NCBI GenBank assembly: GCA_050084515.1
Contig: CM114271.1
Coordinates: forward strand, 16,492,001-16,556,000
Length of the DNA: 64,000 nt
DNA from: Blasia pusilla
Lineage: Eukaryota
Direction of reading: 5' to 3'
The notes beneath the pieces were generated by a model. That model saw only the letters and a list, made by a program, of their open reading frames with translations, did not search any database and was not told where the DNA came from. How positions within the stretch are numbered: the first letter of the stretch is position 1; each line of letters starts with the position of its first letter. A program made the translations under genes and the position numbers. This document shows, piece after piece, positions 1 to 61,689 of this stretch.

Positions 1-2007
1 CTTGAGGAGACCGATCGGGGCGTCCTTTCGATTGCACGATTGGAGCATGTTGGGGCTTGGAGTGGTGCTCACCAAAGCATGATGATGAGGGTAGAGAGTT
101 TGTGGTGGCTTACGCTAGCCGCTCGAACAACGCCGCAGAGGCGAAATCGGCTTGTATGAGGGTGAGTTTGGTCGGTGTGGGTTGTCGCGCATTTTAGGTG
201 TTACTTATTCGGCAACCCCTTTACCATCATCATCGATCATCAACCACCGAAGTGGTTGATGGAGTCCGACAAGCTTACAGGGAAGCTTGCGAGATGGGCT
301 CTGTTGTTGCAGGAGTATGATTTTTGGTACATAGACCTGGAACGCTCAACCAGGATGTAGATGGGTTGAGTTGTAACCCATGCCCGAGTCAGCGAGATGC
401 GATTGGATCTCGATGGCATGGAGAGAGTGATGAGGAGTCGGTGCCAGGATGGCACGCGTCAGCCTATTTAGGCATGTTGGCTATGGAGAGCCAGAGTGTG
501 GAGACTTTGATGGCGAGGTCTAGTGGAGAGTCTTTGGATCCCGAGGCGGTGAGGACACGACAAGTGGCGAGATATTCATGATGATGGAGTAGTCTTAGAG
601 TACCTTCAGACATCGGCAGCCTTGCAAGCACCATGGATGCTAGAGAGCGGGATCGGATCCTACAGCGGGCCAGACGGTTCCGTTGGGAGGGGACACATGT
701 TTTGAGGGTTTGGGAGGATGGCAGAGTACCGCGAGTGCCGCATCCTTTGCAGAGAGCACGACTAGTGCAACATGCCCACGAGGAGTTGGGTCACTTTGGG
801 GTGAAGCGGACGTATAGCTTGCTCCGGATTCAATATTGGTGGCGAGGCATGCAGGCAGGCGTTCAGCAGCTTTGTTGCCAAGTGCATGGTGTGTGATCGG
901 GTCCGAGCATCGTTCAATGCTCGACTCCACAATTGCATCCATTACCGATCATGGGCTTAGGGTATAGATGGAGTTTGGATTTTGCGGGACCTTTGCCCTT
1001 GACGGAGCGCCACGATCGTTATGTGTTGGTGATGGTGAGCACTTCTCGAAGTGGATCGAGTTGGTTGCATTGCCGACAAAGCAAGTGAGGGAGTAGCTTA
1101 TGCCTTCCTTGACAGAGTCTTTGAGTCATTATGGCGCACCGGTGAGGTGTTGATGACCAGGGTACCGAAGTTTCGCGGTGAGTTCCAGGCCTTGTGTGAC
1201 GGGCGATCGACCATCGCGCGACCGCGAGATCATCCCGAGGCGGATGGATTAGCGGAGAGAGTTGTGCAGACGGTGAAGAGGCGTTTACGCAAGTATGGCT
1301 TGCAGAGAGGTCACCTAGGAGATTGGGACCTCTAGTTGCTATGGTTGGCGATGGGATACAGATTCAGCAGGCAGGCATCCTTAGCGTCTTTTTCACCGTA
1401 CTTGCTACTTTATGGCCGAGAGCCACATTTACCTGCGGCCATTCGTCGAGATGCTGGTGAGATGGTGAACCTTGATGACCCAGATGTATGGGTGCGAGCA
1501 TGTTCTCAGAGGGCTGAGTTATTTCGGAGAGTGATGCTCATGGCGTTCGAGAACTTGGCGATTGCACAGCATCGGGATACGTTGAGGTATGCGACTATTT
1601 GAGGTGGTAGTTATCGACCAACTATCCGGAGGTTTCATCAGGGAGATTATGTCTATTTGCAGCAGACGGCACCGATGATGTTGGATGTGACTGCAGGGCG
1701 CACTATCCTGAGAGTGCGTGACATTTTGCCATCGGGTGTTCTCTTGCTTGAGGGACGCGATGGTATGGTATGGAATGACCATGTGCGTAATTGTGCGCCA
1801 TGTCACCTTCCTAACATTGATGGTACATTAGATCCGAGCTTAGTAGTAGTTCCTGCAGGCTTGCGTTGTATGTTGTGTGGTTCTGCCCGTGGTGCGGCCA
1901 CGATGCTAGTCTGTGATGGCTGTTCGAGAGGATGGCATATGGCATGTTTGACGCCACCTCTCACTAGGGTTCCTCAAGGACGATGGATGTGTCCCAGATG
2001 TACATAG
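1..2007 (+). pseudogene. Frameshifted pol: RNase H - integrase H2C2 - DDE core - C-terminal PHD finger (1867-2004)
   Basis: KLARWALLLQEYDF; HAHEELGHFG...YWWRGM; HPEADGLAER; PYLLLYGREP; CMLC..CDGC..WHMAC..WMCPRC (C4HC3); stop TAG 2005-2007. Confidence 0.92.
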
Positions 2008-2178
2008 AGAAGGTAGTTCTACATTCCGACTTATGTCTATGACATAGATGACAAGGAGGTGACTAACGATGGGGCCACATGAGCACCCGGCCTTCTTGCT
2101 CTTAGCGTCCGAGAGATGTATGTCATGGTAGGTAGGGATAGATGGCTATCTGGAGTTAGAGGGACCTAACCATGAGCT

Positions 2179-2188
2179 AGGGGGGCGA
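2179..2188 (+). other. Polypurine-tract-like motif immediately before repeat B1
   Basis: AGGGGGGCGA; same motif in the same position in copy 3 (59831-59840, minus strand). Confidence 0.65.
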
Positions 2189-2315
2189 TTGGAGATATTT
2201 TGGTTCTTCTTGTCTCGTTATTTGGATGCCATGAGTTAGCATGAGATCATGCGTGTTTGTGTGTGTATTCGGTGACAGCGATGTATGTTGTGTAGCGATG
2301 TGTATGCGCACGACA
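2188..2315 (+). repeat. Terminal repeat B1 (128 bp)
   Basis: ATTGGAGATATTTTGG...GCGCACGACA; differs from B2 by one substitution and a 2-bp indel. Confidence 0.95.
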
Positions 2316-2317
2316 AC

Positions 2318-2829
2318 TGTCACGTCTTTTAGGATAGATCGGTGGGATCGAATAGAGCACCTTCATGAGTAGTGGAGGACACGCCCAGTAGGTCGAGGGT
2401 GACCATTGAGGCCTTGGAAACCTGAGATAACGAGGTTTCCCCTTCGTTCGGCTCATTTGGAGCCATATTGAGGAACTTACTATTTTAGGTAATTACTATT
2501 TTGAATATATGATCGACTTACTATTTTTGGTAAGTGGCCCTTGACCTCCTACATCAGGTCAAGAGCCAAGGAGGTGACTTGGGAGAATAGGTTACCATGG
2601 AGAGAGCTTGGGAGAGGAGAGGGGTATACCTCAAGGAGAGAGAGCTTGAGAGCTCATTCTCTCTTTATTGAACCTCTTGGCATGAGGCGGCGGAGCTATG
2701 GTACCTTGCCTTGTGAGTGTAACCCAAGCCTCTCATTAGGAGAGTGGGTTTGGTTTGACATGAGATAGAGTGCACACCTTTGAGAGCTATGGTGTGAGAT
2801 GGTGGAGAGAGAGATTAGATATTACTTTA
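2318..2829 (+). repeat. Terminal repeat A2 (~510 bp, LTR-like, starts TGTCAC)
   Basis: Colinear with the reverse complement of 10774-11287; contains hairpin CTTGACCT-cctacatc-AGGTCAAG and a TATA-like GGGGTATA. Confidence 0.93.
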
Positions 2830-2954
2830 TTGGAGATATTTTGGTTCTTCTTGTCTCGTTATTTGGATGCCATGAGTTAGCATGGGATCATGCGTGTTTG
2901 TGTGTGTTCGGTGACAGCGATGTATGTTGTGTAGCGATGTGTATGCGCACGACA
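2829..2954 (+). repeat. Terminal repeat B2 (126 bp), 3' terminus ...GACA
   Basis: Near-identical direct repeat of 2188-2315. Confidence 0.95.
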
Positions 2955-4712
2955 CTAACGATTTGGATCAATTGGTCTTGTGTCTCCCAAGTTTGGATCT
3001 CGAATCACCCTTCAAGCTCAATACATCTACACAAGATTAGATATCGACCTAACCACTCACTCCCTAAGATAGGAGAATATTTCAAGACTTGGGATAGACT
3101 TTCTTAATTGATAGTTTGGGGACTTGAAATGGTACTAGTGGGCAGGGAGGTCCCAAATACCCCATGGACCTCCCTGGGGTATTTGGGACCCGAAACCTTC
3201 ATTGAACAAGTCTTTAATGTACTAAAGATCTAGACAAACAAATGAACATAAGTCTTATAAAGGACCAAAAATTTACAAAATGATAACTTGGGGATTTTGG
3301 CCACAAGGGGCAACACAAAATATTACATGGATAAAAGGATGAGGTGAATTTATTTAGAATAAGATGTAAGGGAAAAATCTCCAAGCATATTTGGAACCTG
3401 ACTCTCATATTGGAAACCATGGGAGGATGAACCAAGGCCACATAATGCATTGAGAGGTTTAATTGAGGATTAACACCAAGTCAAGTCTAGATAATCCAAT
3501 TAAGGATTAACCTTAGAGCTTAACTCATATAATGAGTTTTGATTAAAGTTTTGTCTAGATCTTTAGTACATTGAAATTGAATTCTCACAAGCTTTCTAAT
3601 GCAATCTTATTCATCCCAAATGTCTCTTGGATCTTGAAAATATGGTTCAACATAAAGAAATCAAGGATGTTGTTGACTTGACGGGATTTTTGAAACCAAC
3701 CTTATTGAACAACTACATACACATTCTTGCTTCAAGTTTCAGGGAATAGTTTGCCTTCATCCCTCCCCTTGAAAATATTTAAGCATATTTGTGTGGATGA
3801 ACATGCAACGACTTATGGTGGAAATTTTGTTTTTGAGTTGCCTCGACTGATTGGTCTGGCTCAAAAGAAAGATGGAGGATGCTTGATGGTTATGAATTGA
3901 AAATCTCACTATCATCAATGGTGTGCAGACTACAACGGACAAGTGCTTCCAATACCTTCCATCCAAGTCGGTCCTTTTGATTGTATCTCGTCGCCAATGC
4001 GTTGGAGCCCTAGAGTTTAGAAGTCCTAGCTACATTTTGATCTTAAACACGGAAAACCCCTAGACGTTCAATCAAGTTCCAAGCTAGGTTGAAGTCTCCT
4101 CACAGTTTGACTCTTGTGGGACTTGAGCTCTTCTCAAGTTCCATCCAATGTTTGGTCATGCTCTTCTAAGTCAAAACCACTATATAATCTACAAGGCGTC
4201 CATCAAGGCTCGTGTCTTACTTATGTAACTTATGTTTCACCCATGAGACTTTGATGTATTTGCATCCCATTTGAGGTCACTAGAGTTCACATGTTCCACA
4301 TTGGCTTTCTTTTGGTTTTGAGGCTGCAAATTTTTTTAAAAAAAAGGGCTTCTAATTCTTCTAATGCATCAAATTATTTCCAATTATAGGAAGGATAATT
4401 TTTTTTATACTCGAGGAGATAATGATTACGTTCAAGTATTTATATGAAATTTTTTTGGAATAAATATGATTGGGAGAATGGAAAATGGAAAAGGAAAATA
4501 AATGGATTTCAAAGAATTTTTAATGCCTTGAAATTTGAGAGGCTATTGTATGCACATTTAGTTTTATTAGGAAAAAATGAGCTTCTATACGAATTCTTGT
4601 ATCTTGATAAATCCAAAACCTTCTAAAAGAAGGGGATGGGACTTCCACTTGGATAGTAGCCTTCTTTAAATATCTTATAAATTCTATAAATTCATGTCAT
4701 GAGGAATATATT

Positions 4713-7700
4713 CCACCCCGAATAGTCGCATACCTCAATGTATCCTGATGTTGCGCAATCGCCAAGTTCTCGAACGCCATGGGCATCACTCTCCGAAACA
4801 ACTCAGCCCTCTGAGAACATGCTCGCATCCATACATCTGGATCATCAAGGTCCAGCACCTCACCGTCATCTCGACAAATGGCCGCAGGTAAATTTGGCTC
4901 TCGGCCATAAAGTAGCAACTATGGTGAAAAAGACGCTAAAGATGCATGCCTCCTGAATCTGTATCCCATCGCTAACCAGGGAAAATGGAGGTCCCAATCT
5001 CCTAGGTGACCTCTTTGCAAGCCATACTTGCGTAAACCCCTCTTCACGGTCTGCACAACTCTCTCCGCTAATCCATCCGCCTCGGGATGATCTTGCGAAG
5101 TCGTACGATGGTCGATGAGCGCCTGATCACACAAGGCCTGGAACTCACCGCGAAACTCGGTACCTTGGTCTGTCAACACCTCAGCCGGTGCGCCATAATG
5201 ACTCAACATTCTGTCAAGGAAGGCATAAGCTACTCCCTCACTCGCTTTGTCAGGCAATGCAACCAACTCGATCCACTTTGAGAAGTGCTTGATCATCACC
5301 AACATATAACGACTGTGACGCTCCGTGAAAGGCAAAGGTCCTGCAAAATCCAAACTCCATCTATACCTTAAGCCCATGATCGGTAATGGATGCAATTGTG
5401 GAGTCGGAGCATTGAACGATGCTCGGACCCGATCACACACCATGCACTTGGCAACAAACTGCTGAACGTCAGTCTGCATGCCTCGCCACCAATATTGAAT
5501 CTGGAGCAAGCTATACGTCCGCTTCACCCCAAAGTGACCCAACTCCTCATGGGCATGCTGCACTAGTCATGCTCTCTGCAAAGGATGTGGCACTACGCGT
5601 ACTCTGCCATCCTCCCAAACCCTCAAAACATGTGTCCCCTCCCAACGGAACCGTCTGGCCCGCTGTAGGATCCGATCCCGCTCTCTAGCATCCACGGTGC
5701 TTGCAACGCTGCCAATACGAAGGTACTCCAAGACTACTCCATCATCATGAATATCTCGGCTACTTGTCGTGTTCTCACTGGCCTCGGGATCCAAGGACTC
5801 TCCGCTGGATCTCGCCATCGAAGTCTCCACACTCTGGCTCTCCATAGCCAGCATGCCTAAATAGGCTGACGCGTGCCATCCTGGCACCGACTCCTCATCA
5901 CTCTCTCCATGCCATCGAGCTCCAGTCGCATCTCTTTGACTCGGGCATGGGTTACGACTCAACCCATCTGCATCTTGGTTGAGCATCCTAGATCTCTGTA
6001 CTACGTGAAAATCATACTCTTGCAACAACAGAGCCCATCTCGCAAGCTTCCCTGTAAGCTTTTCAGACTCCATCAACCACTTGAGTGGTTGATGATCAGT
6101 GATGATGGTAAAGGGGTGCCGAATAAGTAACACCTGAAATGCGCGATAGCCCACACCGCAGCCAAGCACTCACCCTCATACGAGCTGTACTTTGCCTCTT
6201 TAGCGTTGTTCGAGAGGCTAGCGTAAGCAACCATGAACTCTCTACCCTCATCATCATGCTGGGTGAGCACCGCTCCAAGCCCCAACATGCTCCAATCTAT
6301 GTGCAACTGGAAAGGACGCCCCCTGATCGATCTCCTTAATATGGGCATGGACATCAACCTGTCCTTGAGCAACAGAAATGCTCGCTCCTGCTCATCCCCC
6401 CAGTGCCACTCGTGATCCACCTTGGTCAACAAGGTCAGCGGCTTCGCAATCGAACTGAATCCCTTGACGTATCGCCGATAGAAGTTCGCCAATCCCATGA
6501 ATGCGTGAACACAACTCACATCCGTAGGGCGTGGAATGCGTGAGATAGCCTCTACCTTCACTGCACATGTGAATCGAACGGGTAATGAGCTAAGGCGCCC
6601 ATCACCTGACCGCCATCCTGGTCTATAGGACGCTGAATCCTCCCAGTAATCCAGGGAAAACCCCATCGGGTATAACACTGCTCCACCAACCAAGACGTCG
6701 TAGGACTCTACATCAGTCACTATCACCTTGGCGCGCACCACGGACTCATCTGTAGGATGTCTTGGGCGAATCCTCACCACGACCTCTTGTCGGGTGATAT
6801 ACTGTGTGGTACTCGCTCCACCCAAGGATGTCTGTATCTGGAATGGACAACGATCCACATCGGCTCTCGTCAAGCCCAATCCTTTGAATGACGCTTTCCC
6901 CAACATCAAGGGTTGCACTCCTGAATCCAACAAGACGCGTTGCGGACTAAAAGCTCTACCTATAGGACTCACCAAGTGGAAGACCTATCCTTGGTTATCC
7001 AACAACACAACACGAGGAGAAGCCATGGCACGCTCTATTGCAGGTCTAGCGGGCATCTCCGCCATCCTAGCAGCCGCAGCCTGCCATGAATCTGACGTGG
7101 ACTGTCCGAGCATCTGCTCCAAGGGCAGGTCCATCACCTCCTATGCAATCACCTCTGAACGTGATGCAAGAACTCCAACTCCGCGCTCACATAGCAAAGC
7201 GGCCAGCCAAAAAGCCTCGGCGGGTGTACCCCCCAACGTCATAACATCGGAAGCAGAAAATAAAGGAGTGCGGTACACAACGGTGGCCGCCCTCAACAAC
7301 GTGCTCGACACATGCCCCTCCTGAGCATCAAAAATAAGAGTCATCGTACTCGCTTCTCCCATCACCCTTCGTGCCTGCACACCAACAACATCACCAACTC
7401 TCCAGGAACTTTGATGAGGACCCATCGATGGGGTCCTCATCGCTTCAGACAACGTGAAAGACTGAGGAAGCCTAGTCTGTTTTCTGGCTTCCCCTTGTTG
7501 TGGATCCAACTCTGCGGCTACTCCACGCGTCACAAGTGCGGCGGCCTCCATTTGGGCAACCCCGCACATCCAACTAGGATCCTCCTGATCTCTGGCTGCT
7601 CCATATAATGTCGATGCCACGGATCCGGCATCGGGTAACCTCAATGCCAAAGTGGAAATCTGCTCATGTAGCTACTGTATCTGAGTAGCCATCCCAGCCT

Positions 7701-9193
7701 CACGTCCGGCGTCTCCCTCGGCGCGTCTAGGTGGTGGTACTCTACCTCTTCCACGGGCAGCTCCACCACCCTGTCGGGCAACTCCAGCTCCTCGTCCCCC
7801 AACGGGACCACCTGGTGCACGATCTCTAGGCCCACCTCGTCCCTAAATGGGACCACCTGGTGCACGATCTCTAGGCCCACCCGTACCGGCTACTCGCTCT
7901 GGTGACCTCTCTAGCCCTCGGTCCGGACGTAACTCAAGATGTAAAGTGAAACACCTGGCGCGTGTATGACCATACCTATGACAATAGTCACACTGATAAC
8001 CTCCTGGTGCATCACCATCTCCTCCTCCAGTTGAGGCACACGTCCATGACCCTGACGAGTGCAATGGCACTGATGATGGGCTCCACCACATGACCAACAA
8101 GTAATAGTAGGCGACTGCTGTTGAGCCGCATATGAAGGCGTAGGTCTCTGTGCCACGGGCTCCCGATATCCTCCCTGAGCTTGTGGTGCCACAATTGACC
8201 TATCTCGGAGTCCACGTTGCTGCACAGGTGGTGTAGCCAATCGCGACTGCTCTCGCCTAGAACCATGGTGGCTACGCTCTCCTCCGCCATATTGCGCTCA
8301 ATGTTCTCGGCGGTCCTAAAAATATCCCTCAACATAGGGGAGGTGTTCATAAGAAGCACCCCTCTTGCACCCGTGGCCGCAGGGTCTGGTCCAACATCGC
8401 GTACCATGACTGGATAGCCTAAGCCTCTATCACCCCCTGAGTGACGTTGATAAACCGGTGCAAGCAAGTGTAAGCCTCATGTAAACTCTCACCCGGGCGC
8501 CTCTGAAAGTTGTGGATGCTCCGCAACTTTTCCGTCCGTACCCCGTAGTAGCTCGCCCTCAACTCAGCAAAGAACTCAATGACGGGATTGAACCTGGGAC
8601 GAACCCGACTAGACGGTGTAACTGCTCCAGTGCGAGTGACCCCTCCTAAAACATCACTATTGGAAGAGGAAGTAGCCTCTCCTGAATCCTCCTCCTCATC
8701 TGGGAATGGCTCCGTCCATGACACATAGTGGGGGTTGTAGTAGAGTCGCCATGCCTCAATCTCCTGGGCATATCTGTGGGAGACCTCATGGTAATTGTCT
8801 ATGGGTGCCCCCTCTAAATACTGGAAATATACCATTCCATGCTGTAAATGGGTTGAACTCTCTAGAGTTCCTGGCCCGCTGGGAGTCGCACCAACTCCTA
8901 AACTTTGCTATGAAATCATGCAACTCAATCGTACCTACTGCACCTGAAAACCTACGCGGTCCTCTACCCCGGTCGTCCATCTCGTACGCCCAATCGGTAG
9001 GACCATTCACAATGTGTGGCGACATGCTCTCAAACTCCTCTACACCCTCCCCCTTGTCTGACGATGATACAAAAGGAGGTCGAGTTGGTCCCTGAAGTGA
9101 AGACCCTCGGAACCTCACGCCACTACGCGTAAAACCTCTAGAGCTACTCTCGGGTTCACCACCTTGCCTCTCAAAGTCCCGAATGGACGCCAT
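4713..9193 (-). pseudogene. Degenerate gag-pol (gag, 2 Zn knuckles, aspartic protease, RT thumb/RNase H, integrase)
   Basis: FQRRPGESLHEAY (gag); CWSCGGAHHQCHC and CDYCHRYGHTRARC; RVLLDSG; FMGLANFYRRYVKGFS; WSLDFAGP, TDQGTEF, ADGLAER; several frameshifts and stops. Confidence 0.9.
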
Positions 9194-10773
9194 GATGACC
9201 CTCGTGCCCTTCTCACCCGATCACTCTTGCCTCGCGAGTAATCCCTCAATCACTCATCCCAAACATGCGGCACTCGATCTACACTCTCCCTCCGCGAGAC
9301 ATGTAACGTGCGGCAATAAGCGGCGTGGTGGGGCAAATCGACCACGCTATCATTTCATCGATAACCTACCCTCAACTCCGGACATCCCACACAGGTCTAT
9401 GTCCCCTAAACCACATACATAAATGATGCTCTCAACATCCACACACCCAGTATCCCCAAATAAACTAACCAAATCCCAGAATCCCTCACACGTGCAGGGT
9501 AAAGGACCAGAATGGGTAACCTGAACACATGTCAATGTCGCTCCTCAGCAAATGCAAATCTCGACCCCAACTCGGTCATGGAGAAACTCCTCCAATCAGC
9601 AAGTCATACTCCTCCCGTACTGACGTTGCTCAAAACTCCTCGATAGACGGTGCGGTTCCAACGGAACGGTACGGCGTTGCAGGCGGCACGGAACGGCTAC
9701 GAACGGCACCGCCCTCGATGATGGATGCGGCACTCGGCGCCATACCCTCCTCAATCAACAATAAACCCACACTTTGCTCCATAATGCCGGAGCGGCTCCG
9801 CGATCAACACGGTGCGGTGTGGCCACGAGCGGCACGACGCGGCAATCGGCGACGCGTTGCGGCTACGGGCGTCACGGCACGGTACCCGATCGTCGTTGAG
9901 CGGCTACCAATCACAACATAGCAGCATGAAATCAAAACTTAAACACTATAACAAGAGGTCATATGCCATCACATGTTGATGACAGTGGCGGCCAAAACAA
10001 AATACGTGATGGCGACGCAAGTCTGAGAATCAACGAACGTTGTGGAAGACCCTCCACTCCGTAACGGCGAAAATGGCAACCAAGGGTGGACAACGGACGG
10101 TGGACCATTGACGGTGATGGTTGACCATTGATGGTGACGGCCGAACGGTGATGGTGATGGCGATTTTGATGGTTGACGATGACTATGATTGATCATGTGG
10201 CGGCTGGTTTAGGTTTTGCACAATTTAACCCTAAAAATCGCCTAGCAATGGCAGTTTTCAAGATTGATCATAACTTTTTGCTCGCAACTCCAAATTGCGC
10301 ATTGTTTGTTGCACAGCGTGCACAACTTCACAATCTACGCCAACATCCAGAAAAATTGGAAATTCCAGTAAAAACTGACGGGGATTGTCGTAAAGCCCAA
10401 TGTCTCTTTCTCCTACACAAAATTCGGCAGCACTTCCGCGCTGATTTCTCCCAACAAAAATGTAAAACCTATAAAAATGCAAATCAGCAAGCGACATGAA
10501 GCTCCCAAAAGCACCGGAATGGGGCAACCCGCCCCCATACTCAATCCCTATCAGAAATTGGGCAGCGCTTCCGCGCGCCACTCTTCCACATGAAAAATCG
10601 GCAAATGCAAAGAACAATCCAAGCAACCCTTGCTCCGCTGAGCACTCCCATGAGCCGTTGAACGGAGAACACGGTCCCCAACCTGCAAAAACAGTGAATG
10701 ACCAGCGAGCTCCCCCATGAAGCTCTCTCACTCTCTCATTCTCTCATTCTCGCATTCTCGCATTCTCTCTTTG

Positions 10774-11287
10774 TAAAGTAAGATCCAATCTCTCTCTACA
10801 CAATCTCACACCATAGCTCTCAAAGGTGTGCACTCTCTCTCATGTCAAACCAAACCCACTCTCCTAATGAGAGGCTTGGGTTACACTCACAAGGCAAGGG
10901 ACCATAGCTCCATTGCCTCATGCCAAGAGGTTCAACAAAGAGAGAATGAGCTCTCAAGCTCTCTCTCCTTGGGATATATACCCCTCCCCTCTCCCAAGCT
11001 CTCTCCATGGTAACCTATTCTCCCAAGTCACCTCCTTGGCTCTTGACCTGATTAGGAGGTCAAGGGCCATTTACCAAAAATATAAAGCCGATCATATATT
11101 CAAAATGGTATTTACCTAAAATAGTAAATTCCTCAATGTGGCTCCAAATGAGCCAAAACGAAGGGGAAGCCCGCACTCTCAGGTTTCGGGCCTCAGCAGG
11201 TCATCCTCGACCTCCTAGGCCTGTCCTCCACTACTCTTGAAGACGCTCTACTAGATCTCACCAATCTATCCTAATAGATCGGTGACA
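10774..11287 (-). repeat. Terminal repeat A1 at the 5' end of copy 2 (not followed by B or by a TGG-type PBS)
   Basis: Reverse complement aligns with 2318-2829; on the element strand it is followed by CAAAGAGAGAATGCGAGAATGCGAG... Confidence 0.92.
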
Positions 11288-13637
11288 AAGGAGATATCTT
11301 ATAGGGCAATAAGTCAATATTTTTATGGATAACTTGACTATTAACTTTGTGTGTAACACAAGCTCTACAGTAATTTGAAATTAACATGACATCCTCTTCA
11401 AATAAGCTTATTAGGGAACTCGAAAAGCACAAGATGATCATAAACTAGGTAGGATTATTAGAGATAATAGTGAGAGCTATAAACAACATAAGACAAAATT
11501 TGAGGTGTGTTGATGTTCATGGAGAGTCTTGGTGGAGGTTGCAACAACTAGGCAAAGTCCCAATGATAGTTTCTACAATGATGGTGGATGAAATATTTCA
11601 TCCATTCAAACACTTACTATTCAAACATTTATTTGTTTTGCGAACTACAAGGGCTTAGTAGTTTTTATGATTTGTAGAGTCCAACCTCTACTTCTCCTTG
11701 CTTCACCTTGAAGCACTCTCGACCTTGAACTTTGCAAGCGGAGGACTTAGGTTAAGCCCCAAAGACTCAACTGGTTGCACGTTTTGTAGGTAGCTCACAA
11801 AGTGTCAAATACTAATATAATGAATCGAGTCTCTTCAAGTATGTATTGCCTTTTCTGGAAGCCTCTTTCCTAAAATTTGATCAATCTCTCCAAATCACTT
11901 GCCTATATTGGAGCGCGTTCATTAATTTCTCAAGGTGCATCCTCTAGCTCAAACTTGAGACACCACCAAACGCACATAAGAATTAATTTACCGTTCAAGG
12001 ACTTGAGCAAGCAGGGAGGGAGAGTGTCCCCCTCCCTCCCCTATATGTACTTTTCTAGGGTTCTCTATGGAAATCATACCTTCCCCAATGCCCACATCTA
12101 GCCCTTGATTTTAGCCCTAAACCCAAATGTAGTTTGCGACCCACGAACCCACATTTGACTAGTTATCCAATGGTTTGGCGGAAGCTTCTTGCATATTCTG
12201 CAACTCTCGGATCCCCAAATGTATCTTGGAGATTGGATCCATATTTTATATGTCTCTAGTGTCCATCTCGACTCCCCGTTTGGTGTCTCATAGTCTCATA
12301 CTTGCCGTTCATTGCGTTTAGTGATTAGTCTCGTGGTGTCTCGCCCATCTTGACTACTCACATGTTCCTTGCTCCTCGCCTTGATTTGACGCTTGGCTTA
12401 AAGATCTCAAACCTTCCTTGCCCTGCCTTTTTCCTTGTGAGTAGCTATACCCCTTTCTCACCTAAGGCTAGTCACAAGACGCGTGCACATCTCGCCTAAC
12501 GTTAGTCTTGTGGTCGGTTTCGCCGCTCTAACTAGTCTAGCGACTAGTTAGTCTACATTTTGACTTTGGTGCGTCGCACCAAGGTCTTTTCCTCCTTGGA
12601 CCTGCGATCATGACTCGCTTTTTGGGTCTCCGCTAGCGTGGGGGCCATAGACTCAGTTATTTGTGACGCACCATATCTTATAATTTATATTGTTAAAGAA
12701 ATGTAACTTTTTAATTTTCAAAGAAATACCTCTATTCCCTACACATGGGAGTAGTGCCACATCAAGAAAAGATTTTTATAACACACGCATAAAGATTTTA
12801 AGAAAATAAGAATTTTGGACAACATTATTATCGGCCCATTGCATACCATGAGATGTGTATCTTTGTCAATCCTTTGAACAAAGGAAAGCTTCTTCACTTC
12901 CAAAAGCATCTTTATTTGCCATATGGAAACGGCCTACAAAGAATATTTCCACATCACGGACAATAAGAAAACATTTTTCCAAACAACATGCTCACTTCGT
13001 GCCATGGACGAAGTCCACATAAGTTAATTACTAATTATGATTATCCTCCGCATGACACAAGCCCGGGTTTTGATAAGTCTACACCCTACCATCACCCATT
13101 AGGAAAGTTTGCATGGTGCCCCGGCCTTTGAGAAAAAACAAATCTATCTTGTCGAATATTGTGGCTCTTAAAAATGTGCGCAGGATAAAAAGAAGTATAT
13201 TTTTCCAAAGTCGATTTTCCGAATAATTTATTTTTTTATTGAAAAAACGCGAGTCTGAGAATTTTTTCCCCGGCGTCAGCCAAGTCAATGGCATCGATCC
13301 CCGGCTACCGGTCGTCCGTGAATATATACCGACCGGAGTGTATTTGTTTTTGGAAAATGTTTTATATAATAAAAATATAAAAATAGCGTTGGATGGCGAT
13401 AAATGGACGGCGTTACGTGCGCCGGTGGAGTCTATCTCCACCTGGCGAACATTCTTCCGTGAACCCTCACGATTATAACGACTTTGACTAGAGAGAGAAG
13501 AGCGGTGAATACTGTATATACCAGTAAAAGAAGTGTTTTCCCGTGTGTTTTTAATCAAATAAGTTTAAAAACAGTTTTGTCTCAATAGAGGATATTTTAT
13601 TTAATTAAAAATGCGGAGGTGGAAGAAAAGGATCATA

Positions 13638-28134: not shown

Positions 28135-30850
28135 AATTTTTTATTTCCATGAAGTATTTCTTTATACATAACGTTGCTTGTGAAGAGTCCTTTATCATTT
28201 GAAAGCGCATCACTTCCTATTGTGATATGTATTGCATATTTTTTGTCCTACTCTCAACAATGCAACATATAATTCACCATCAGAAAAGACTCGTGTAGGT
28301 AGAAAAATTCCTATCTTTTTCAAGGTTTGACCTTGAGATTTATTGATAGTCATGGCAAAAGCGGGACGAATGAGAAATTCAAATCTACGTAAATCAAAAG
28401 GTAAACCTGAGTCTCACACAATCAATGGGATACGTGGAGTAAATACTCGATCACCAGTGTTCTTTTCTATAATGATTTCAGCATCAATGGCATGTTGCAT
28501 GAATCCACGAATCACCAAACGAGTTCGGTTGGCTTGTCCCTTTGAACCATTCAAATTCCGTAAAAGCATGATAAGTGCATCAATTTTCAAGGTTAAACGA
28601 TGTGGTGGTAAATTTGATGGTAAGCAAGTATTTAAGATTTCGGTCGGATAAATATAACTCATTCCCTCATCCGAAATAGTATCAACACTAAGGTAAGTGC
28701 GTTCTTACATAAAACAAAGATATGTCAATTAGAATATGATTTTAGTATTGATGCATAATACAATTAAAGAACACATGAGGAGAATGACATGAATATTACC
28801 TCTCCATAGAATTGAAACATGACTTCTGTATTGATGTCGTCAACATCTCGATTTTTGGTGTAAGAGTTGTTGTACCTCTTAAAGTTAATCTCACGAAACT
28901 TTTCAGAATCATTTCCGTAATGTCAATAAGATCATTGATTTTCTTACTTTCGGTCATCATATCACTTGGAAATTGTATGAAATCCTCTCCCAAATGAGCT
29001 TGCAAAGGCACACGACCCTCTCCAAACTCCAATAACCAATTTGCAAAATCTTGTTTTTGTACACGCATGTTCACTTTCAAATTTGGAACTCTCATATTGA
29101 TCGTTAGCTTCATTACCCTCACATGAGACCATAAAGTTAACCTCTTTAATGTAGCTTGAATATTTTTGGACGGTCTCCATGACGAACAACTTGCAAGACT
29201 TGGCGAAAATCCCCACGAAAGACTATTAATTTGCCACCAAACAGAATATTCCTCAAGTTTTCGGATACCACTCCCATGATATCTTGAAAGAATCGATTTA
29301 CAGTCTCAAATACATGGCGATGAGTCATAGGTGCCTCCCCCCATGTGATAAGCCAAGCCCTTTGAATCAAGCACGCAACTTCGCTATTAACACGTAGATT
29401 GCAAAAAAACGTACTCAAAGATATGAATATTTTTGGCAAGATAACTCTTTACCATGATAAAAGACTTACGAAGAAATGAATTGGTCATATTACTTACTTG
29501 CAAGTAGAATTTTCATCTACTTTGACATGAGTGCGCAGTGTGTCCTCCATCTAAGAGCAAAGCAACTATCCCCGATGAAGCAACAGCTAAAGCTATGCCT
29601 TCAACACCTCGTGCACTCGCAAGAAGAAGATTGTATAAGAAGGTTTTTCCACTTCCACCACGTCCGTCAATGAAGAACAAATTTGAACACGAATTAATAT
29701 CACCATGCAAGGATGTTTTCGAGTTTATCGTGAATAGCATCCCAAATCAACCGTTTTACATCATTCAAAGTTTCCTCTCCTAGCCTACCTCGTTCATGTA
29801 GGTCATCTCCATCATATTGGAGCTCTTCCGCTTCCAAATAGGAATATAAAGATGAAGCTTGGAAATCCGCTTAGGGCACATCGGGGAAATCGGATAATCG
29901 TTTTCCTTGATCTTGCAAATGGTAGTGGACTTCCAATAATGTCATGCAAATAATTAAGAATTTGGAGCAAGATCGAGTATCCCTGTTTTCTGCATAAAGG
30001 CTAAGATGGAAATCAAGTCCAAAAGCAAAATCAGAAAATAACAATTATTATCATTGAAATAGGATACACTATTACCTCACGTTGTTGATAGAGGACATCC
30101 TCAATGAGTGGGACCAAAAATTGACTCTATAGTTGAGCAGGTCGGGTTGGTGTGTTCTAAGCGAGAATAATAGCAAAGAGTGGACGCAATGCACGACCTG
30201 TATGGATTTTTTATGCTTCTTGAAAGCATGAGAATACTTCCCTATGATCCTCAAGAAGCCCTATTTGAATAGCAGCCTCCTCAAATGTTGGATATAACAC
30301 TTCGTGAACAGTTCTTACGTATTAATATGTAGTTGCGCCTCAAATATGATGAAGTAGCAACCACAACCAATGTCATTCTCCTTCATCTATATATCAAAAC
30401 TTGAATGCATTTGCTTAATACACCAAACATTGCAATGATCAAAACGATGCTTTTATATATATTTACATAATTTGTAAGTACATTGAGGAATTGGAAATAA
30501 AAGTACCTGGGTGAGTAAGATATAAGGGACCAATTGGATGCCCACAACCATTTCTCCTTTGAGTTCTATGAATCCATCTTTTTTTCTCCAACGATAATAG
30601 GAAGGAAACTTGTTATATAAATACTTTCGAGCCTCCAAATCCAAATGATTAGTTGCAAACCATTGTGTAAGAGTTGTCCCCCTCTTCCTTTGTAATATCT
30701 CTTGCATATTGTCATGCTCATTGAAGAAAATTCTTTGTAATTCAGATAGATGAACTGTCAGCCTTACGATACTTGGATGTTCTGCATGTAGGCTAAACTT
30801 GAACAATCTCCAACATGCTTCAGAAGAAGATACATATCTGTATATGATAC
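28135..30850 (-). pseudogene. Helitron Rep/PIF1-like helicase remnants
   Basis: [77 protein letters not shown]. Confidence 0.9.
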
Positions 30851-43100: not shown

Positions 43101-43322
43101 GGTCATAAGGTTCAGACCCAAGATGCGTTTGGGATGAATAAGGTGGTATAGGGAAGCTTATGCAAGGCTAGTTCTATCTCAAGAAAGATCTAGACAAACA
43201 CATGAACAGAGGTCAAGATATCACTTGGAAACTTTTAGAAGGACAGTTGGATTGAGGGCCAAAAGGAGCGGCCCGAGGGGTCTTTCCCAAAGATAAGGAG
43301 AGGTTGCAGTCGCAGTAAGTAA

Positions 43323-45079
43323 GAAATGGAGATTACATCACATGGACGTCAAGAACGCCTTCTTGAATGGAGGTCTATACGAGGAGGTATATATGACTCA
43401 ACCACCTCGATACGAGCATCCCAAGTTTCCATTTCGCGTATGCAGGTTAAAGAAAGCTCTATACAAGCTCAAACAAGCTCCAAGAGCTTGGTATGGCAAG
43501 ATTACATACGTCCTACAAGAGCTGGGTTTTAGGATATGTGATTCTGACTCCTCGTTATATGTCTTGAGAGGACAAGATCATACAATTATCATTATATTGT
43601 ATGTTGACGATTTGTTGATTATTGGGAGTACTGAAGAAATGGTACAACAAGTCAAGCTTAAGTTACAAGGAGAATTTGATGTGAAGGACTTGGGAGAACT
43701 CAAGTACTTCCTTGGTATTGAGTTTATCAAGGTTGGAGAGAGCATGTGGTTACTACAACCACAATATGCTCTTCATATGCTTTCAAAATATGGTATGACG
43801 GCTTGTAAGCCAATCTCTATACCTTTGGACGAGAGCGTGAAGCTAAGAGTGGATGAAGGAGAACTGCTTGCAGATTCTAATATGTACATGCGCATGGTTG
43901 GAAGTTTGATCTATCTAACTATAACGAGACTAGATTTGAGCTATGCTGTTGGCCTAGTGAGCCAGTTTATGCAAGCACCTCGAAAACCTCACCTTGATGT
44001 TGTGAGGAGGATTATGCGATATGTGAAATTCTCTATTCAATTCAGGCTTCAATTTGAACCTTCTCTGAGTTTTTAATTACAGAGATTTACAGATGCTGAT
44101 TCGGTAGGAAGCGTGTCTGATCGACACTCCACATTTGGTTATTCATTTACTTTGGAAAGCGCAGCTATAAGTTGGGCTTCAAAGAAGCAACCTAGAGTTG
44201 CTTTACCTTCAACAGAGGCTGAATACAGAGGAGCAAACAATGCAGCATGTGAGGCGGCGTGGCTTCATCGATTACTTGTTGAGATTGGTATTAGTAACTT
44301 AGGACCTAGTGTAATATATGCAGGCAATATTAGTAGCATCAAGCTTGCTAGTAACCTTGTGTTTCATGCTCGTACAAAGCATGTTGAGGTACACTAACAT
44401 TTTATTAGAAAGAAAGTGCTTGCAGGAGAAATTGATCTTGTGTGTATAGGTACAGATTAGCAAATTGCTGACATCTTTACAAAGGCATTCTCTAGAGATA
44501 AGTTTGAGATGTTTAGAAAGGATTTAGGCATTAGAGATATCGATATGAGCTTGAGGGGGAGTATTGAAGATTGAGTTACAATCAAGCTAATGAGACATCT
44601 AAACTGCTGCATTTGGTATTCACACAAAGTAGGGAAGCTTAATCTTGGTTAGTCAGTTAAGTACGATTATCTTAACTAGTGTTAGTTAATCATAGTTAGT
44701 CTAACTTGAGACTATGGTTAAGGATAGGGTTAGGGTTGCTTGTACATACCATATATAATTGAGAAGAGGACCAGCCTCCACTCATTCTCTTATTGCAAAT
44801 TTCGTTCTCCATGGTGGTGTGTGTGTGTGAGAGCCCGTTTTCCACCAATTATGCTTGTTTAGCAGTTTTCCACATTCGTTCCTTGTAACCGGTCTTTGCA
44901 CAAAGACTATCTTCACTTTTCTTTACAAAGAAGCTTTTTCTTAGTCTTCATTGACAGTCTTTAATTTCCGTTCTTATCGCGGTCTTTTCTTAGGAAGCAC
45001 CCGCGCTTATTCTTCTTACTTCTTTTCCTGTCTTTTACACCATTCTCACTCTTCCAAAACAACCCTTAATCTTCTAACA
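43323..45079 (+). mobile_element. Ty1/Copia 3' fragment: RT, RNase H, PPT (44553-44561), 3' LTR (~44562-45079)
   Basis: [54 protein letters not shown] then TATTGAAG...CTTCTAACA. Confidence 0.9.
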
Positions 45080-45344: not shown

Positions 45345-46095
45345 TACCTGTAGAATCTGACACGTTGGTAGACATTAGAAGTCAAGAAATGCTAGTGACG
45401 AAACAAGTGAAGAAAGATAATGAAAGAAAGGTAAGGCATTATCCTTCCATGCAACCTGTAGGAATCTGACAGGTTGCATGTCAAACGAAGGTTGATTATA
45501 AGAAGAACGTTAAGAAAGCCACTGAAAAATTGAAATAAGAACATAACATATATGTGAAAGCAAAGAAATGCAGGAAACTCTAAGGTTCCAATCAGACATT
45601 CAACCCATCAAAATTTGACAGGTTGCAAGACATGCTGAAAGAAAAATGAAACACCCATATGTTAGGAAGCATCCACGTTCCGTTCATTCAGACATGCAAC
45701 CCGTCGGAATCCGACAGGTTGCATCGCTTGCAACCTGTTAGAATCCGACACGTTGCATCGCTTGCAACCACTCAGAATCCGACAAGTTGCAAGGATTGTC
45801 TTAGTTTACGTTATCTTGCAATTTTCAAAATTTGACGGGTTGCAAGATGGTAGAACTAAAAATAAGATCAAACCAGAGTCTTTCAAAACCAAAAAGCTAA
45901 AAAAACAACTGCCACCCGTCGCGAGCTGCTACAACCGAATAGTAGAGTCCAAGAGAGCACACACACCACACCAAAAGAATAGAAGAACATCAAATGGGAA
46001 TTCGACGGGTTGAAGGTTGCAGTGAAAGTAGAGTTCCAAAAAGTAAGAAATGTTCAAGATATCTTCAGGCGACCTATCAATTTTTGACGGTTTGC
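45345..46095. repeat. Cluster of imperfect palindromic repeats (TGCAACCTGTCGGAATCCGACAGGTTGCA-like), 34-bp tandem units at 45695-45791
   Basis: Three tandem units plus dispersed copies near 45345, 45450, 45600, 45820, 46000, 46070. Confidence 0.8.
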
Positions 46096-46898
46096 TAAAA
46101 TTTTTGAGATCCATAATCGGATCTCTAATTTTTAAAATGCTCATATTTTTATGGATTTTAAACATTAGAGATCCGATTATGGATCTCAAAATTCCATGAT
46201 TTCTCTAATTTTAAAAATTTTATGGATTTTATGGATTTTAAAAATTAGAGATCCGATTCTGAAATTTTATGAATTTTATGAAACCCTAAAAATGCCTCCA
46301 TAAAATTTCAGAATCGGATCTCTAAAATAACATCAAACCATGAGCATGAAGAAAAGTTGGTGCAAAAAAATTAATTCCTTTATTACAAATCATTTGCAAA
46401 TTGGCTATTTTCATTTCATTTCCTGAACAAGAAATTCTAGTCTATGATCGCTTCAGCCTCGTCATCTATAAAAATATTCCTAACTCTTGCCGGTTCCTCT
46501 AAAAGGCACTTCTCTTGGCTATTAAGTGGCTCCTCTACACGATTGTAGATGGGAAAAGACAAAGAAGGAGAATCTTAGAGCCTTTTCCTCCTTGGAACCC
46601 CATATTGGTCCCATGTGACCCGAGAAAAGTCCCAACGCCTCCCCCAAAAGGTGATTTTGAAGGCTCTACAAAGGGACACCCATCCATAATTGATATATGC
46701 TTCTGTGCTTCAACTAGTACATTCCAACCCCAAAACGCTTGAAATCCAAGGCACCTACACTCACTCGTCATCATCCGAGAGCTCCTCTAGAATCATCGGT
46801 GGCCTTGCTATCCTGATTTTTGGGATCACTGGTAGTGACGATGGCGTCACAACCAATGGCTATGCTGTAGGTTCATTAACCCGTGGAGGCGACTCTTG

Positions 46899-51600: not shown

Positions 51601-52992
51601 TATCCTTCGGAGGATGGTGGGAATGCTGCTCATTTATTTAACAAGTTAAGATCATTCCAAATGATCTATCAGTTATATTTTTTAGCTGATATCCTTTCCA
51701 TGCTTGCAAATTTGAGCAAGATTTTCCAGTACAAGTTTGTGGATGTTAGCACTATAGGAAGCATTGTTAATTCCGAGATAGCTTCCATCACTATAAATTT
51801 TGTGATGGAAACACATGACTTGAATGCATCGACCTTCTGTGAAGACACAGGTTATCAAATTTTACCTGATTTTGGGCCTCCGAGTGGCTATCTTCGAGGT
51901 TTACAATCTGAGATAAGGGATAAAATGTTCCATAGTATAGAGATGTCTCGAGATCGCACAGATAGGGATCTGGAGGCTGCATTATTCTTTCAGAAAAGGT
52001 TTGCTGAAAGTGTATGTTCAGTTTTGCAAGATCAATTTCGAGATAACCATCTTATTGGTGCAATGAAAATTCTAAACCCCTTACACATGCCTTCTAGACA
52101 GGGGGGATTGAATAGCTGGGGCTGTCAAGATTTAGATGATTTGTGTGGTTTCTTTGGAGCTCAATTACCTCTTAGAGGTCAGTTGCAACCTGTTTTGATT
52201 AACTCTCCTATTGTGAAACAATAGTTTCAGTCTTTCAAACCGATGGCTACTACAGAGTGGAAGGATCGCAACTTTAGGGACTTATGGGCTATGGTAAGTT
52301 GGAGTCCCTCTTTGCAATGTAAGTTTTCAAACTTGTTGATTTTAGCAAATATTGCTAGAGTCCAATGTGTGAGTACTGCTATTTGCGAGTGAGCTTTCTC
52401 CATTCAAAATATGATCAAGAGCAAATCTCGCAATAGGTTGTCTACAAAATACTTAGATGTTGTTTTGAGGATTGCCTTAGAAGGCCCTTCCTCTGATTAA
52501 GAGGACTTGTTGGGTGAGTCTGTTGTGTTATGGAAAAATTCTGCTCATTTTAGATATATCTTTGCTAGTCCATAAAAATATCTGACTTCATAGGTAGAAG
52601 TAGAGGTAGAAGGAGACAACACTCGAGTTTTTGTAAAGTAGGATGTTTTTATTTAGATTTGTTGGTTTTGTAGGGCCCTTTTAGAATACTTGGAGCTTTG
52701 GGGCTCCAAGTATTGTAGAGGGGGAGGATACTTGGCTCCCAACTGGTGGGAGGAACCAGGTTCAACTCCTGCCAAGGATATCTTACTAAATGATATGTGA
52801 TTTACTACCAAGTGACACGAGGTCTTTGAAGTTGAATTTTTTTAGAGTGTTGGAAGTCACGTTGCTTAGAATGTTGGAGTGATGATAGTGAATGAATGGG
52901 AAAGATAGTGAATGAATGGGAAATCATTGTTTTCTCTTAGAAATCTTCAAAATCCAATGACGTTGAAAAAATGTCCTCACGAGACGGGTTTG
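48618..52992 (+). mobile_element. hAT DNA transposon, boundaries tentative
   Basis: Contains the transposase; loosely inverted ends CAGATCCGGGGTCGCGAG / CTCACGAGACGGGTTTG; no 8-bp TSD seen. Confidence 0.55.
50407..52600 (+). pseudogene. hAT transposase (TTF-type Zn finger, DUF4371/ZNF862-like, hATC), disrupted
   Basis: MAKRQKTLSSF; W..W..IFCK..H; FGIRIDESTD; GSDGASTMVG; VHCVAHK; RWLS; STAICE*AFS..KSRNRL; stops and frameshifts. Confidence 0.9.
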
Positions 52993-59703: not shown

Positions 59704-61301
59704 TGTCGTGCGCATACACATCGCTACATAACGTACATCGCTGTCACTGAACATAAACATAAACACGCACGATCCCATGCGAACTCATGGCATCCAAACA
59801 AGGAGACAAGAAGTACTAAAATATCTCCAATCGCCCCCCTAGCTGGTGGTTAGGTCCCTCTAACTCCAAATAGCCATCTATCCCTACCTACCATGACATA
59901 CATCTCTAGGACGCTAAGAGCAAAAAGGTCGGGTGCTCATGTGGCCCCATCGTTCGTCGCCTTCCTATCATCCATATCACGAAAAAAAACGGAATCGAAA
60001 CCTACCTAGTATCTCCTCTATGTACATCTGGGACACATCCATCGTCCCCGAGGAACCCTAGTGAGAGGTGGCGTCAGACATGCCATATGCCAACCTCTCG
60101 AACATCCATCACAGACTAGCATCATGGGCGTACCACGGGCAAAACCACACAACATACAACGCAAGCCTGCAGGAACTACTGCTAAGCTTGGATCTATTGT
60201 ACCATCAATGTTAGGAAGGTGACATGGTGCACAATTACGCACATGGTCCTTCCATTCCATACCATCGCGTCCCTCTAGCAAGAGAACACCGGATGGCAAA
60301 TCGTCATGCACTTTCATGATAGGACGCCCTGCAGTCACATCCAACGTCGTCGGATAGTTGGTCGATAACCACCACCCCGAATAGTCGCATACCTCAACGT
60401 ATCCCGATGTTGCGCAATTGCCAAGTTCTCGAACGCCATGGGCATCACTCTCCAAAACAACTCGGCCCTCTGAGAACATGCTCGCATCCATACATCTGGG
60501 TAATCAAGGTCCAGCACCTCACCAGCATCTTGACGAATGGCCGCAGGTAAATCTGGCTCTTGACCATAAAGTAGCAAGTATGGTGAAGAAGACGCCAAGG
60601 ATGCATGTCTGCTAAATCTATATCCCATCACCAATCATGGCAACTAGAGATCCCAATCTCCTAGGTGACCTCTCTGCAAGCCATACTTGCGTAAACCCCT
60701 CTTCACCGTCTACACAACTCTCTCCGCTAATCCATCCGCCTCGGGATCATCTTACGAAGTCGTATGGTGGTCGATCAGTGTTTGATCACACAAGGCCTGG
60801 AACTCACCGCGAAACTCGATACCTTGGTCTATCAACACCTCAGCGCGTGCGCCATAATGACTCAGCACTCTATCAAGGAAGGCATAAGCTACTCCCTCAC
60901 TCGCTTTGTCAAGCAATGCAACCAACTCGATCCACTTCGAGAAGTGCTCGATCATCACCAACACATAATGACTATGACGCTCCATCAAAGGCAAAGGTCC
61001 TACAAAATCCAAACTCCATCTATATCTTAAGCCCATGATAGGTAATGGATGCAACTGTGGGGTCGGAGCATTGAACGATGCGCGGACCCGATCACACACC
61101 ATGCACCTGGCAACAAACTGCTGAACGTCAGTCTCCATGCCTCGCCACCAATACTGAATCTGGAGCAAGTTGTACTTCCGCTTCATCCCAAAGTGACCCA
61201 TTTCCTCGTGGGCATGTTGCACTAGTCGTGCTCTCTGCGAAGGATGCGGCACTACGCGTACTCTGCCATCCTCCCAAACCCTCAAAATATGTGTCCCCTC
61301 C
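59704..61301 (-). mobile_element. PHD-Gypsy copy 3: integrase, PHD finger (60021-60158), 3' UTR, PPT, single B repeat (59704-59831)
   Basis: Homologous to ~680-2315; ends ...GCACGACA directly against hAT sequence; cut at 61301 by a chromovirus LTR. Confidence 0.92.
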
Positions 61302-61654: not shown

Positions 61655-61689
61655 AACCTCCCCCCATTTAAGACACAACGTCCTCGTTG

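Follow-up and report, generated by a model that had tools for sequence, protein, structure and literature searches.

An encoded end-to-end junction in a split-repeat gypsy retrotransposon of Blasia pusilla and its possible use by integrase

A 64,000-nucleotide stretch of the Blasia pusilla genome (GenBank assembly GCA_050084515.1, contig CM114271.1, positions 16,492,001 to 16,556,000 of the forward strand; hereafter referred to as the window) was found to contain three incomplete copies of a retrotransposon of the Ty3/gypsy type. The 22 bases at positions 2306-2327 (GCGCACGACAACTGTCACGTCT), flagged in a first-pass annotation as a possible integrase substrate, are the internal junction of this element, whose direct repeats, termed A and B, are split: they comprise the right end of an internal copy of the right-terminal repeat (B1), a 2-bp spacer (AC) and the left end of an internal copy of the left-terminal repeat (A2). 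The element is a liverwort-type member of a little-known group of gypsy elements with DIRS-like split repeats. Position, recurrence and symmetry of the junction suggest that it may be cleaved by the integrase of the element during integration.

Split repeats and the internal junction

Comparison of the three copies placed the repeat boundaries to the base (Table 1). Homology between A1 of copy 2 and A2 of copy 1 (90% identity) stopped at the exact base at which homology between B1 and B2 of copy 1 began. B1 and B2 were 97.7% identical over 128 bp, with three differences in 126-128 bp; B1 and the B of copy 3 were 89% identical, and B divergence between copies amounted to 10-11%. An identity of 97.7% within copy 1, versus 88-90% between copies, fits the formation of both of its Bs from one template at or after insertion. 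In copy 2, A1 was followed by the leader and gag, not by B.

Unrelated DNA adjoined the start of A in the single 5' end available (copy 2) and the end of B in all three 3' ends available (B2 of copy 1, the B of copy 3, and B2 of L001, a related contig described below). In no copy seen did the start of B or the end of A lie against foreign DNA. These observations bear out the statement of the first-pass annotation that the 3' terminus (B) and the 5' terminus (A) of the element abut at the flagged site with only 2 bp between them. The terminal inverted repeat is short, consisting of 4 perfect bp (TGTC...GACA) or of 5/7 matching positions.

The 22-mer occurred once in the window and had no match in 100 shuffles. 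The bare palindrome GACANNTGTC had three matches in the window versus 1.07 expected, a number reached in 10 of 100 shuffles, and was thus not above chance. What goes beyond chance is the location of the palindrome exactly at the boundary of two repeats, together with its recurrence in related elements from elsewhere. In these relatives the junction GACA-GC-TGTC (GACAGCTGTC) is a perfect palindrome, from which the version in the window (GACAACTGTC) is one transition removed; the AC spacer probably reflects a G-to-A change from GC, in a CHG context.

Six layouts were compared: a long terminal repeat (LTR) equal to B, to A, to A+B or to B-AC-A-B; no repeats; and split repeats in the order A1-internal-B1-AC-A2-B2. 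Only the split-repeat layout explained the three copies with one ordinary secondary event, a recombination between B1 and B2 in copy 3. The other layouts were disfavoured because each of them needs deletions with end points exactly on A or B boundaries. An LTR consisting of B only (126 bp) would need a tandem element with an internal deletion ending exactly at B2, as well as loss of a 5' LTR exactly 2 bp before the A of copy 2, where a primer-binding-site candidate follows A. An LTR consisting of A only fits copy 2 and fails on the presence of B2 after A2 (copy 1 and L001) and on the direct contact of B with the flank in copy 3, while B-AC-A-B fits copy 1 and fails in copy 2. The element does not carry the same LTR at both ends: its 5' end is A alone (copy 2), and its 3' ends differ by copy, being B-AC-A-B in copy 1, B-GC-A-B in L001 and B alone in copy 3. 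The complete order A1-coding-B1-A2-B2 is found as a composite of copies 2 and 1, and its 3' part recurs in L001.

Related contigs, coding capacity and landmarks of reverse transcription

Relatives were found by scanning a collection of bacterial and archaeal genomes with eight aligned pol proteins of the family. The scan gave three contigs (L001, L002 and L003) that were filed in bacterial metagenome-assembled-genome bins and are evidently eukaryotic. Their pol identities spanned 43-80% overall, the L003 match amounting to 43% over query residues 1-508. In L001 (2905 bp), the end of the PHD sequence was followed by AGGGGGGG-CAC, a B1 of 106 nt ending in ACACGACA, the spacer GC, an A of 360 nt starting with TGTCACGGG, a B2 100% identical to B1, and 21 nt of other sequence that were not present in L002. 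L002 (9285 bp) showed the order polypurine tract-B-GC-A-leader-gag and had intact open reading frames (ORFs), ORF1 encoding a protease and a C5 DNA methylase and ORF2 encoding pol. Its positions 1-127 equalled positions 9159-9285, so that the contig closes into a 9158-bp circle. In L003, AGGGGGGGAAG led directly into a B that started with TGTCAG, extended for approximately 110 nt and ended in CGCACGACA-GC-TG at the contig end; the contig thus terminates in CGCACGACAGCTG after a B bounded by a polypurine tract, and a direct-repeat scan detected no terminal repeats within it.

Of five readable Bs preceded by a polypurine tract, four (copy 1, L001, L002 and L003) continued into a 2-bp spacer and TG(TCAC), the exception being copy 3, in which B met foreign DNA. 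The junction was therefore not confined to the locus at which the first-pass annotation had described it. Nor did its spacer vary at random between copies, as it measured 2 bp in all four junctions and read GC in three (L001, L002 and L003) and AC in copy 1 of the window. Downstream of A, the sequence continued into the leader in two cases (copy 2 and L002) and into B in two others (copy 1 and L001), at the homologous base. When the window was compared with L002, an alignment was still obtained for B (z approximately 3.5) and not for A (z approximately 1.3); despite this, the termini CACGACA and TGTCAC were identical.

Candidate sites for the initiation of both DNA strands were present next to the repeats. 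A G-run preceded B in five of five cases (copies 1 and 3, L001, L002 and L003), separated from it by 4 nt in copies 1 and 3. The tract read AGGGGGGG followed by CAC in L001 and L002, and in L003 AGGGGGGGAAG stood directly before TG. A chromovirus nested in copy 3 had a similar G-run 2 nt before its LTR. Exact copies of the 12-mer CATTCTCTCTTT, a candidate for the transcript 5' end, were located at 2655-2666 in A2 and at 10948-10937 in A1, corresponding to A positions 338-349, 30-32 nt past the TATA-like motif. The 12 nt immediately after A1 (AAAGAGAGAATG) are its exact reverse complement, which suggests self-priming. In L002, a 13-mer right after A matched without exception the reverse complement of A positions 183-195, which lie 29 nt past the TATA-like motif; the same primer layout with a different sequence counts as covariation. 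Neither tRNA genes nor Rfam families, as possible sources of a tRNA-type primer-binding site, were found within the window. Most gypsy elements of the Tcn1 clade in mosses and club-mosses are predicted to prime themselves (PMC6317226).

Some further features of these regions were observed. The leader of copy 2 began, at the primer-binding-site candidate, with approximately five units of 8 bp (GAGAATGN; 10720-10772, minus strand) and contained a pair of 22-bp repeats 135 bp apart (10420-10576, minus strand). In L003, a strong TATA-like motif (CCTATATATAGGGG, 10070-10090) was located in the 3' untranslated region (UTR), approximately 160 nt ahead of the polypurine run with its adjoining B, a placement that differs from the window and L002, whose TATA-like motif lies in A.

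The coding sequences identified the element as a gypsy retrotransposon. Domains in the window occurred in the order RT_RNaseH, Integrase_H2C2, rve (E = 1.7e-13) and a C-terminal PHD (PF00628, E = 6.5e-12, in an ORF at 1603-2007), and ORF2 of L002 showed the order RVT_1, RT_RNaseH, Integrase_H2C2, rve (E = 1.2e-13) and PHD. Residues D695, D755 and E790 were invariant in all eight aligned family pol proteins and, judging by their spacing, probably constitute the catalytic triad of a DDE (D,D35E) integrase. No match to Phage_integrase, the tyrosine recombinase domain, was obtained for the ten L002 ORFs of at least 120 amino acids (aa) or for the 71 window ORFs scanned. The nearest named proteins were of liverwort and moss origin and came from Marchantia polymorpha, with 81% identity across the 134 C-terminal aa, and from Calypogeia fissa and Sphagnum fallax. 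Relatives of full length (approximately 1040-1100 aa) contained RVT_1, RNase H, integrase and PHD domains, and an ESM Atlas look-up with the integrase returned generic integrase clusters only.

A C5 DNA methylase domain (DNA_methylase, PF00145) was detected in L002 ORF1 (E = 6.8e-12), which runs from 8582 through the contig end to 3491, and in L003 (E = 1.1e-4, 3061-9519). Its neighbours in the polyprotein of the relatives are protease, reverse transcriptase (RT), integrase and PHD. In the window, copy 2 has lost the methylase region by deletion and copies 1 and 3 also lack it, the region being either deleted or outside the window. A tblastn comparison of copy 2 with L002 placed the loss at ORF1 residues 838-1355 and ORF2 residues 1-295. 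At 6043-7479 (minus strand), the protease of copy 2 is fused directly to the RT thumb and RNase H, which makes this copy a deletion derivative.

A split-repeat gypsy architecture is already in print and thus not new: KnitGypsy-Dnmt3 of Klebsormidium nitens combines gypsy domains with DIRS-like repeats according to the legend of Fig. 4c of de Mendoza et al. (2018), who spell the DIRS layout as A-coding region-B-A-B (PMC5890265). Compared by published description only, KnitGypsy-Dnmt3 resembles the present family in its gypsy domains, its DIRS-like repeats and, with respect to L002 and L003, the presence of a C5 methylase in the polyprotein, whereas the window copies show no methylase. Dnmt3 is the subtype named for KnitGypsy, and the methylase of the relatives was matched at domain level only, as C5 type (PF00145). 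The passages on KnitGypsy-Dnmt3 in that paper mention no junction, spacer, primer-binding site or mechanism (PMC5890265). In a literature search with most subscription journals outside its scope, no paper was found that proposes junction cutting by a DDE integrase in a split-repeat element or that deals with the PHD-integrase family. PAT-like and Ngaro elements of the DIRS order share the order A1-coding-B1-A2-B2 with internally abutted termini (PMC7192593, PMC5890265). They encode a tyrosine recombinase and no DDE integrase, in contrast to the rve and Integrase_H2C2 domains found here. The methylase of DIRS and PAT elements is Dam-like (PMC5890265), while that of the present relatives is of C5 type. 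A primer-binding site complementary to the transcript start instead of to a tRNA, as the candidate site here would be, is a feature of Tf1/sushi and plant Tcn1 elements (PMC6317226), which differ in having ordinary identical LTRs and a chromodomain in place of split repeats and a PHD-bearing integrase.

Proposed mechanism and alternatives

With the candidate polypurine tract before B and the candidate primer-binding site after A, reverse transcription should build B-NN-A (in which NN denotes the two spacer bases) as one LTR. Plus-strand DNA would start at the G-run just before B and minus-strand DNA at the self-priming site just after A, so that U3 would comprise B, NN and A positions 1-337, and R-U5 would comprise A positions 338-513. 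The flagged junction would then lie inside the LTR and be carried by every complementary DNA (cDNA), and the A2|B2 join would represent a U5 end ligated to a U3 start, as in a two-LTR circle junction. In a circularised or concatemeric cDNA, integrase would nick 3' of CA on each strand of one junction. The product would be a linear A...B-NN-A-B whose CA-3'OH ends are recessed, leaving 5' overhangs of 2 nt, and it would be integrated as a circular permutation of the cDNA. Cutting of a one-LTR circle, or of both junctions, would yield A...B, which would be a dead end because its RNA lacks terminal redundancy; copy 3 possibly represents this form.

The nicking geometry given in the first-pass annotation agrees with this scheme, as nicking on the 3' side of both CA dinucleotides would place the cuts 2 bp apart and generate such recessed ends and overhangs. 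Overall, its interpretation is partly supported. It did not remark that B-NN-A is itself the expected LTR, that this LTR ends in TG...CA, or that a gypsy element with DIRS-like repeats is in print (PMC5890265).

Precedents for the proposed substrate come from two sides. At retroviral two-LTR junctions, a palindrome also arises from two viral ends (CA...TG), with 4 bp between CA and TG. Such junctions form only after circularisation, whereas the present one is encoded in the element, inside the LTR equivalent, and has 2 bp, a spacing with which a cut would give a normal 2-nt overhang. In IS3-family elements such as IS911, abutted ends separated by a few bp are the substrate of a DDE enzyme; these are bacterial DNA transposons without an RNA step, and the analogy is functional only. 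Integrase cleavage of palindromic two-LTR junctions has been reported for foamy virus and HIV-1, with circles as a reserve substrate (PMC1180852, PMC1905944, PMC4372172).

Cleavage of the junction by integrase in circular or concatemeric cDNA is the best available mechanism, with a probability close to, while still short of, an even chance. A more specific scenario is somewhat less likely: that this gypsy lineage of bryophytes, whose relatives carry a DNA methyltransferase, proceeds like a retrovirus up to the cDNA, after which its DDE integrase would open a two-LTR-type circle at the encoded GACA-GC-TGTC.

Several points weigh against the proposed cleavage. In retroviruses, linear cDNA is the accepted main precursor of integration, and for the present element the circle, the cDNA end and the cleavage are all deduced from sequence. 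The ends available are one 5' and three 3' ends, never both ends of one copy, and copy 3 departs from the junction pattern. The host of the three related contigs is uncertain, and all were assembled from short reads; L001 extends 21 nt beyond its B2, and the closure of L002 may represent an assembly cycle passing through a collapsed A repeat or a molecule that is truly circular or tandem. The primer complementarity in the window lies in GA/CT-rich sequence, and the minimum-energy fold shows the primer segment paired with a different GA-rich part of A. Furthermore, the ends of the B-NN-A unit also read TG...CA, with T-TG at the start of B and TTTACA (copy 2) or TTATTCA (L002) at the end of A. 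Ordinary integration by these ends is chemically possible, and copies formed in this way may exist beyond the small sample. Finally, the CAGCTG at the centre of the palindrome could be conserved as a transcription-factor site in U3.

An unlikely alternative is that the junction serves the reverse transcriptase as a template for rebuilding missing ends, comparable to the internal complementary region of DIRS-1 and the B1-A2 junction of PAT and Ngaro elements, while integrase would act on the ends of a linear A...B-NN-A-B. The transcript predicted above would lack A positions 1-337 and B2, which would need restoring, and the TGTC...GACA termini would be blunt CA ends for which processing is unneeded. 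DIRS-1, moreover, depends on its internal copy of the joined ends, and most of the cDNA found for it consists of linear single strands (PMC7192593). However, no order of strand transfers that adds B2 at the right end could be derived by reasoning from the positions of the polypurine tract and primer-binding site, as standard transfers give B-NN-A at both ends, and a template function leaves the exact 2-bp spacer, GC in three of four elements, unexplained.

We consider it improbable that the element is an ordinary LTR retrotransposon, with B-NN-A as its LTR, that integrates by its TG...CA ends, the copies having been rearranged secondarily and the palindrome being a regulatory U3 site (CAGCTG). 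On this reading, the copies seen would be secondary products, formed through an LTR repeated in full or in part behind the 3' LTR, through truncation of LTRs and through B-to-B recombination. The polypurine tract before B, the primer-binding site after A and the TG...CA ends of the unit all agree with an ordinary element, L002 is compatible with one, and all window copies show age and damage, diverging by 8-10%, with an internal deletion in one and a nested insertion in another. Yet such an element would require a break exactly at the B|A junction in four of four termini (the 5' end of copy 2, B2 of copy 1, the B of copy 3 and B2 of L001), in at least two lineages. The start of B and the end of A, at which an ordinary LTR would meet its flanks, were never against foreign DNA in the copies seen, and the position of the A2|B2 join was, to the base, the same in L001 as in the window. 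An A-coding-B-A-B layout is, moreover, reported for KnitGypsy-Dnmt3 (PMC5890265). If instead the LTR were A+B (TGTCAC...CACGACA, 637 bp), B1-AC would be a functionless fossil of a two-LTR-circle junction in the 3' UTR and copy 2 would have lost the B of its 5' LTR. In favour of this unit, its terminal inverted repeat (TGTC/GACA) is the best, it contains a central TATA-like motif and a GT-rich 3' part, and flanking DNA adjoins the start of A and the end of B. It is nonetheless very improbable: a purine run is absent before A2, whereas the G-run stands before B in all five cases; the primer-binding-site candidate follows A directly in copy 2 and L002, with no B between; and B would have to be lost at its exact boundary independently in two lineages.

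Cleavage of the encoded junction would bear on an old question, whether the circle junction is a natural substrate of retroviral-type integrases. Circles were discarded as precursors for retroviruses, and only experiments in vitro and on inhibitor release raised the question again (PMC1180852, PMC1905944, PMC4372172). The present family encodes the junction itself, in the relatives as a perfect palindrome, with a spacer length fixed across elements that differ widely in pol, and the integrated ends are located exactly there; the question thereby becomes testable with plant material and an oligonucleotide assay. If the mechanism is correct, the element would be to DDE integrases what DIRS elements are to tyrosine recombinases, and the circle-precursor pathway would have a living representative. 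A DIRS-like arrangement of repeats does not depend on a tyrosine recombinase. Annotation is affected as well: programs that detect LTRs look for an identical pair and will overlook elements of this kind or assign them wrong boundaries.

Feature coordinates and other contents of the window

The window consists of transposon-rich plant DNA, in which the three copies and other recognisable sequences are located as listed in Table 1.

Table 1. Coordinates of the retrotransposon copies, their repeats and signals, and other features of the window.
Feature	Position	Strand	Remarks
Junction ...CACGACA-AC-TGTCAC...	2306..2327	+	unique in window; same motif in L001, L002; at contig end in L003
Spacer AC	2316..2317	+	2 bp; GC in three relatives
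B1, internal copy of right-terminal repeat (TGGAGAT...CACGACA)	2190..2315	+	126 bp; ends in GCGCACGACA
A2, internal copy of left-terminal repeat (TGTCAC...TACTTTAT)	2318..2830	+	513 bp; promoter- and R-U5-like
B2, right terminus of copy 1	2831..2954	+	directly after A2, no gap; then unrelated DNA (CTAACG...)
A1, left terminus of copy 2	10773..11287	-	unrelated AT-rich DNA ending in TCCTT just before A1
B of copy 3	59704..59829	-	AGGGGGG-CGAT before; unrelated DNA (TCCTT...) directly after; A2-B2 absent
Polypurine-tract candidate AGGGGGG, then CGAT and B1	2179..2185	+	motif also before B of copy 3 (59840-59834), L001, L002, L003
TATA-like motif TATACC	2625..2630	+	TATATAT in copy 2 (10980-10974); read from sequence
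CATTCTCTCTTT, candidate transcript 5' end and self-primer	2655..2666	+	approximately 30 nt past TATA-like motif
Primer-binding-site candidate AAAGAGAGAATG, self-priming type	10761..10772	-	immediately after A1
Copy 1	1-2954	+	left part outside window; polypurine tract-B1-AC-A2-B2, then flank
Copy 2	11287-4713	-	flank, A1, leader; 3' truncated; internal deletion removes RT palm
Copy 3	61301-59704	-	polypurine tract-B, then flank; 5' side cut by nested chromovirus
Copy 1, 3' part of pol: RNase H remnant, integrase, PHD finger	1..2007	+	degenerate; begins upstream of window
Copy 2, internal region: 1.5-kb leader, gag with zinc knuckle, protease, deletion, RNase H, integrase	4713..10760	-	truncated at 4713
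Copy 3, internal region: integrase, PHD, 3' UTR	59830..61301	-	
PIF1-helicase fragment (Helitron-like)	28799-29305		
copia RT	43297-44073		
hAT-like zinc finger and DUF4371 ORFs	50444-52221		
240-bp imperfect palindrome	46082-46325		
GMC oxidoreductase	53356-54808		in two frames
UDP-glycosyltransferase fragment	57075-57575		

The chromovirus nested in copy 3 (61302-64000, minus strand) encodes RVT_1, RNase H, integrase, SH3_Tf2-1 and a chromodomain-like tail and has a G-run polypurine tract. Its 3' LTR (354 bp, TGTAAC...GTTACA, 61655-61302) ends exactly at the break in copy 3.

No further or more diverged copies of A, B or the leader were found within the window. Hidden homology was likewise not detected between A and the 3' UTR before B1, between the leader and B, or between the flank after B2 and A, the last comparison not being significant since 85 and 79 of 300 shuffles scored equally high. 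Approximately 300 nt downstream of the B of copy 3, at 59196-59403 (minus strand), a weak gapped similarity to A positions 89-297 was observed, with a score of 55 versus 34 ± 5.7 for shuffled sequences; one of 300 shuffles was as high with A2 and 15 of 300 with A1. This similarity may be due to chance or represent a very old A-like remnant.

The three copies differed by 8-10% in pol and formed a star pattern with 49, 27 and 47 private substitutions. The pentamer TCCTT was present both in the 5 bp before A1 of copy 2 (11288-11292, minus strand) and in the 5 bp after the B of copy 3 (59699-59703, minus strand). The pentamer falls within the length of 4-6 bp typical of gypsy target-site duplications, and its two occurrences belong to different copies. 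The two copies share a strand and are separated by 48 kb, with the 3' part preceding the 5' part. Duplication of a single insertion with its flanks was considered as the origin of copies 2 and 3 and was not supported, as the three copies form a star. A match at two such fixed positions has a chance of approximately 1 in 1000 and might stem from a preferred target or from one insertion that was duplicated long ago.

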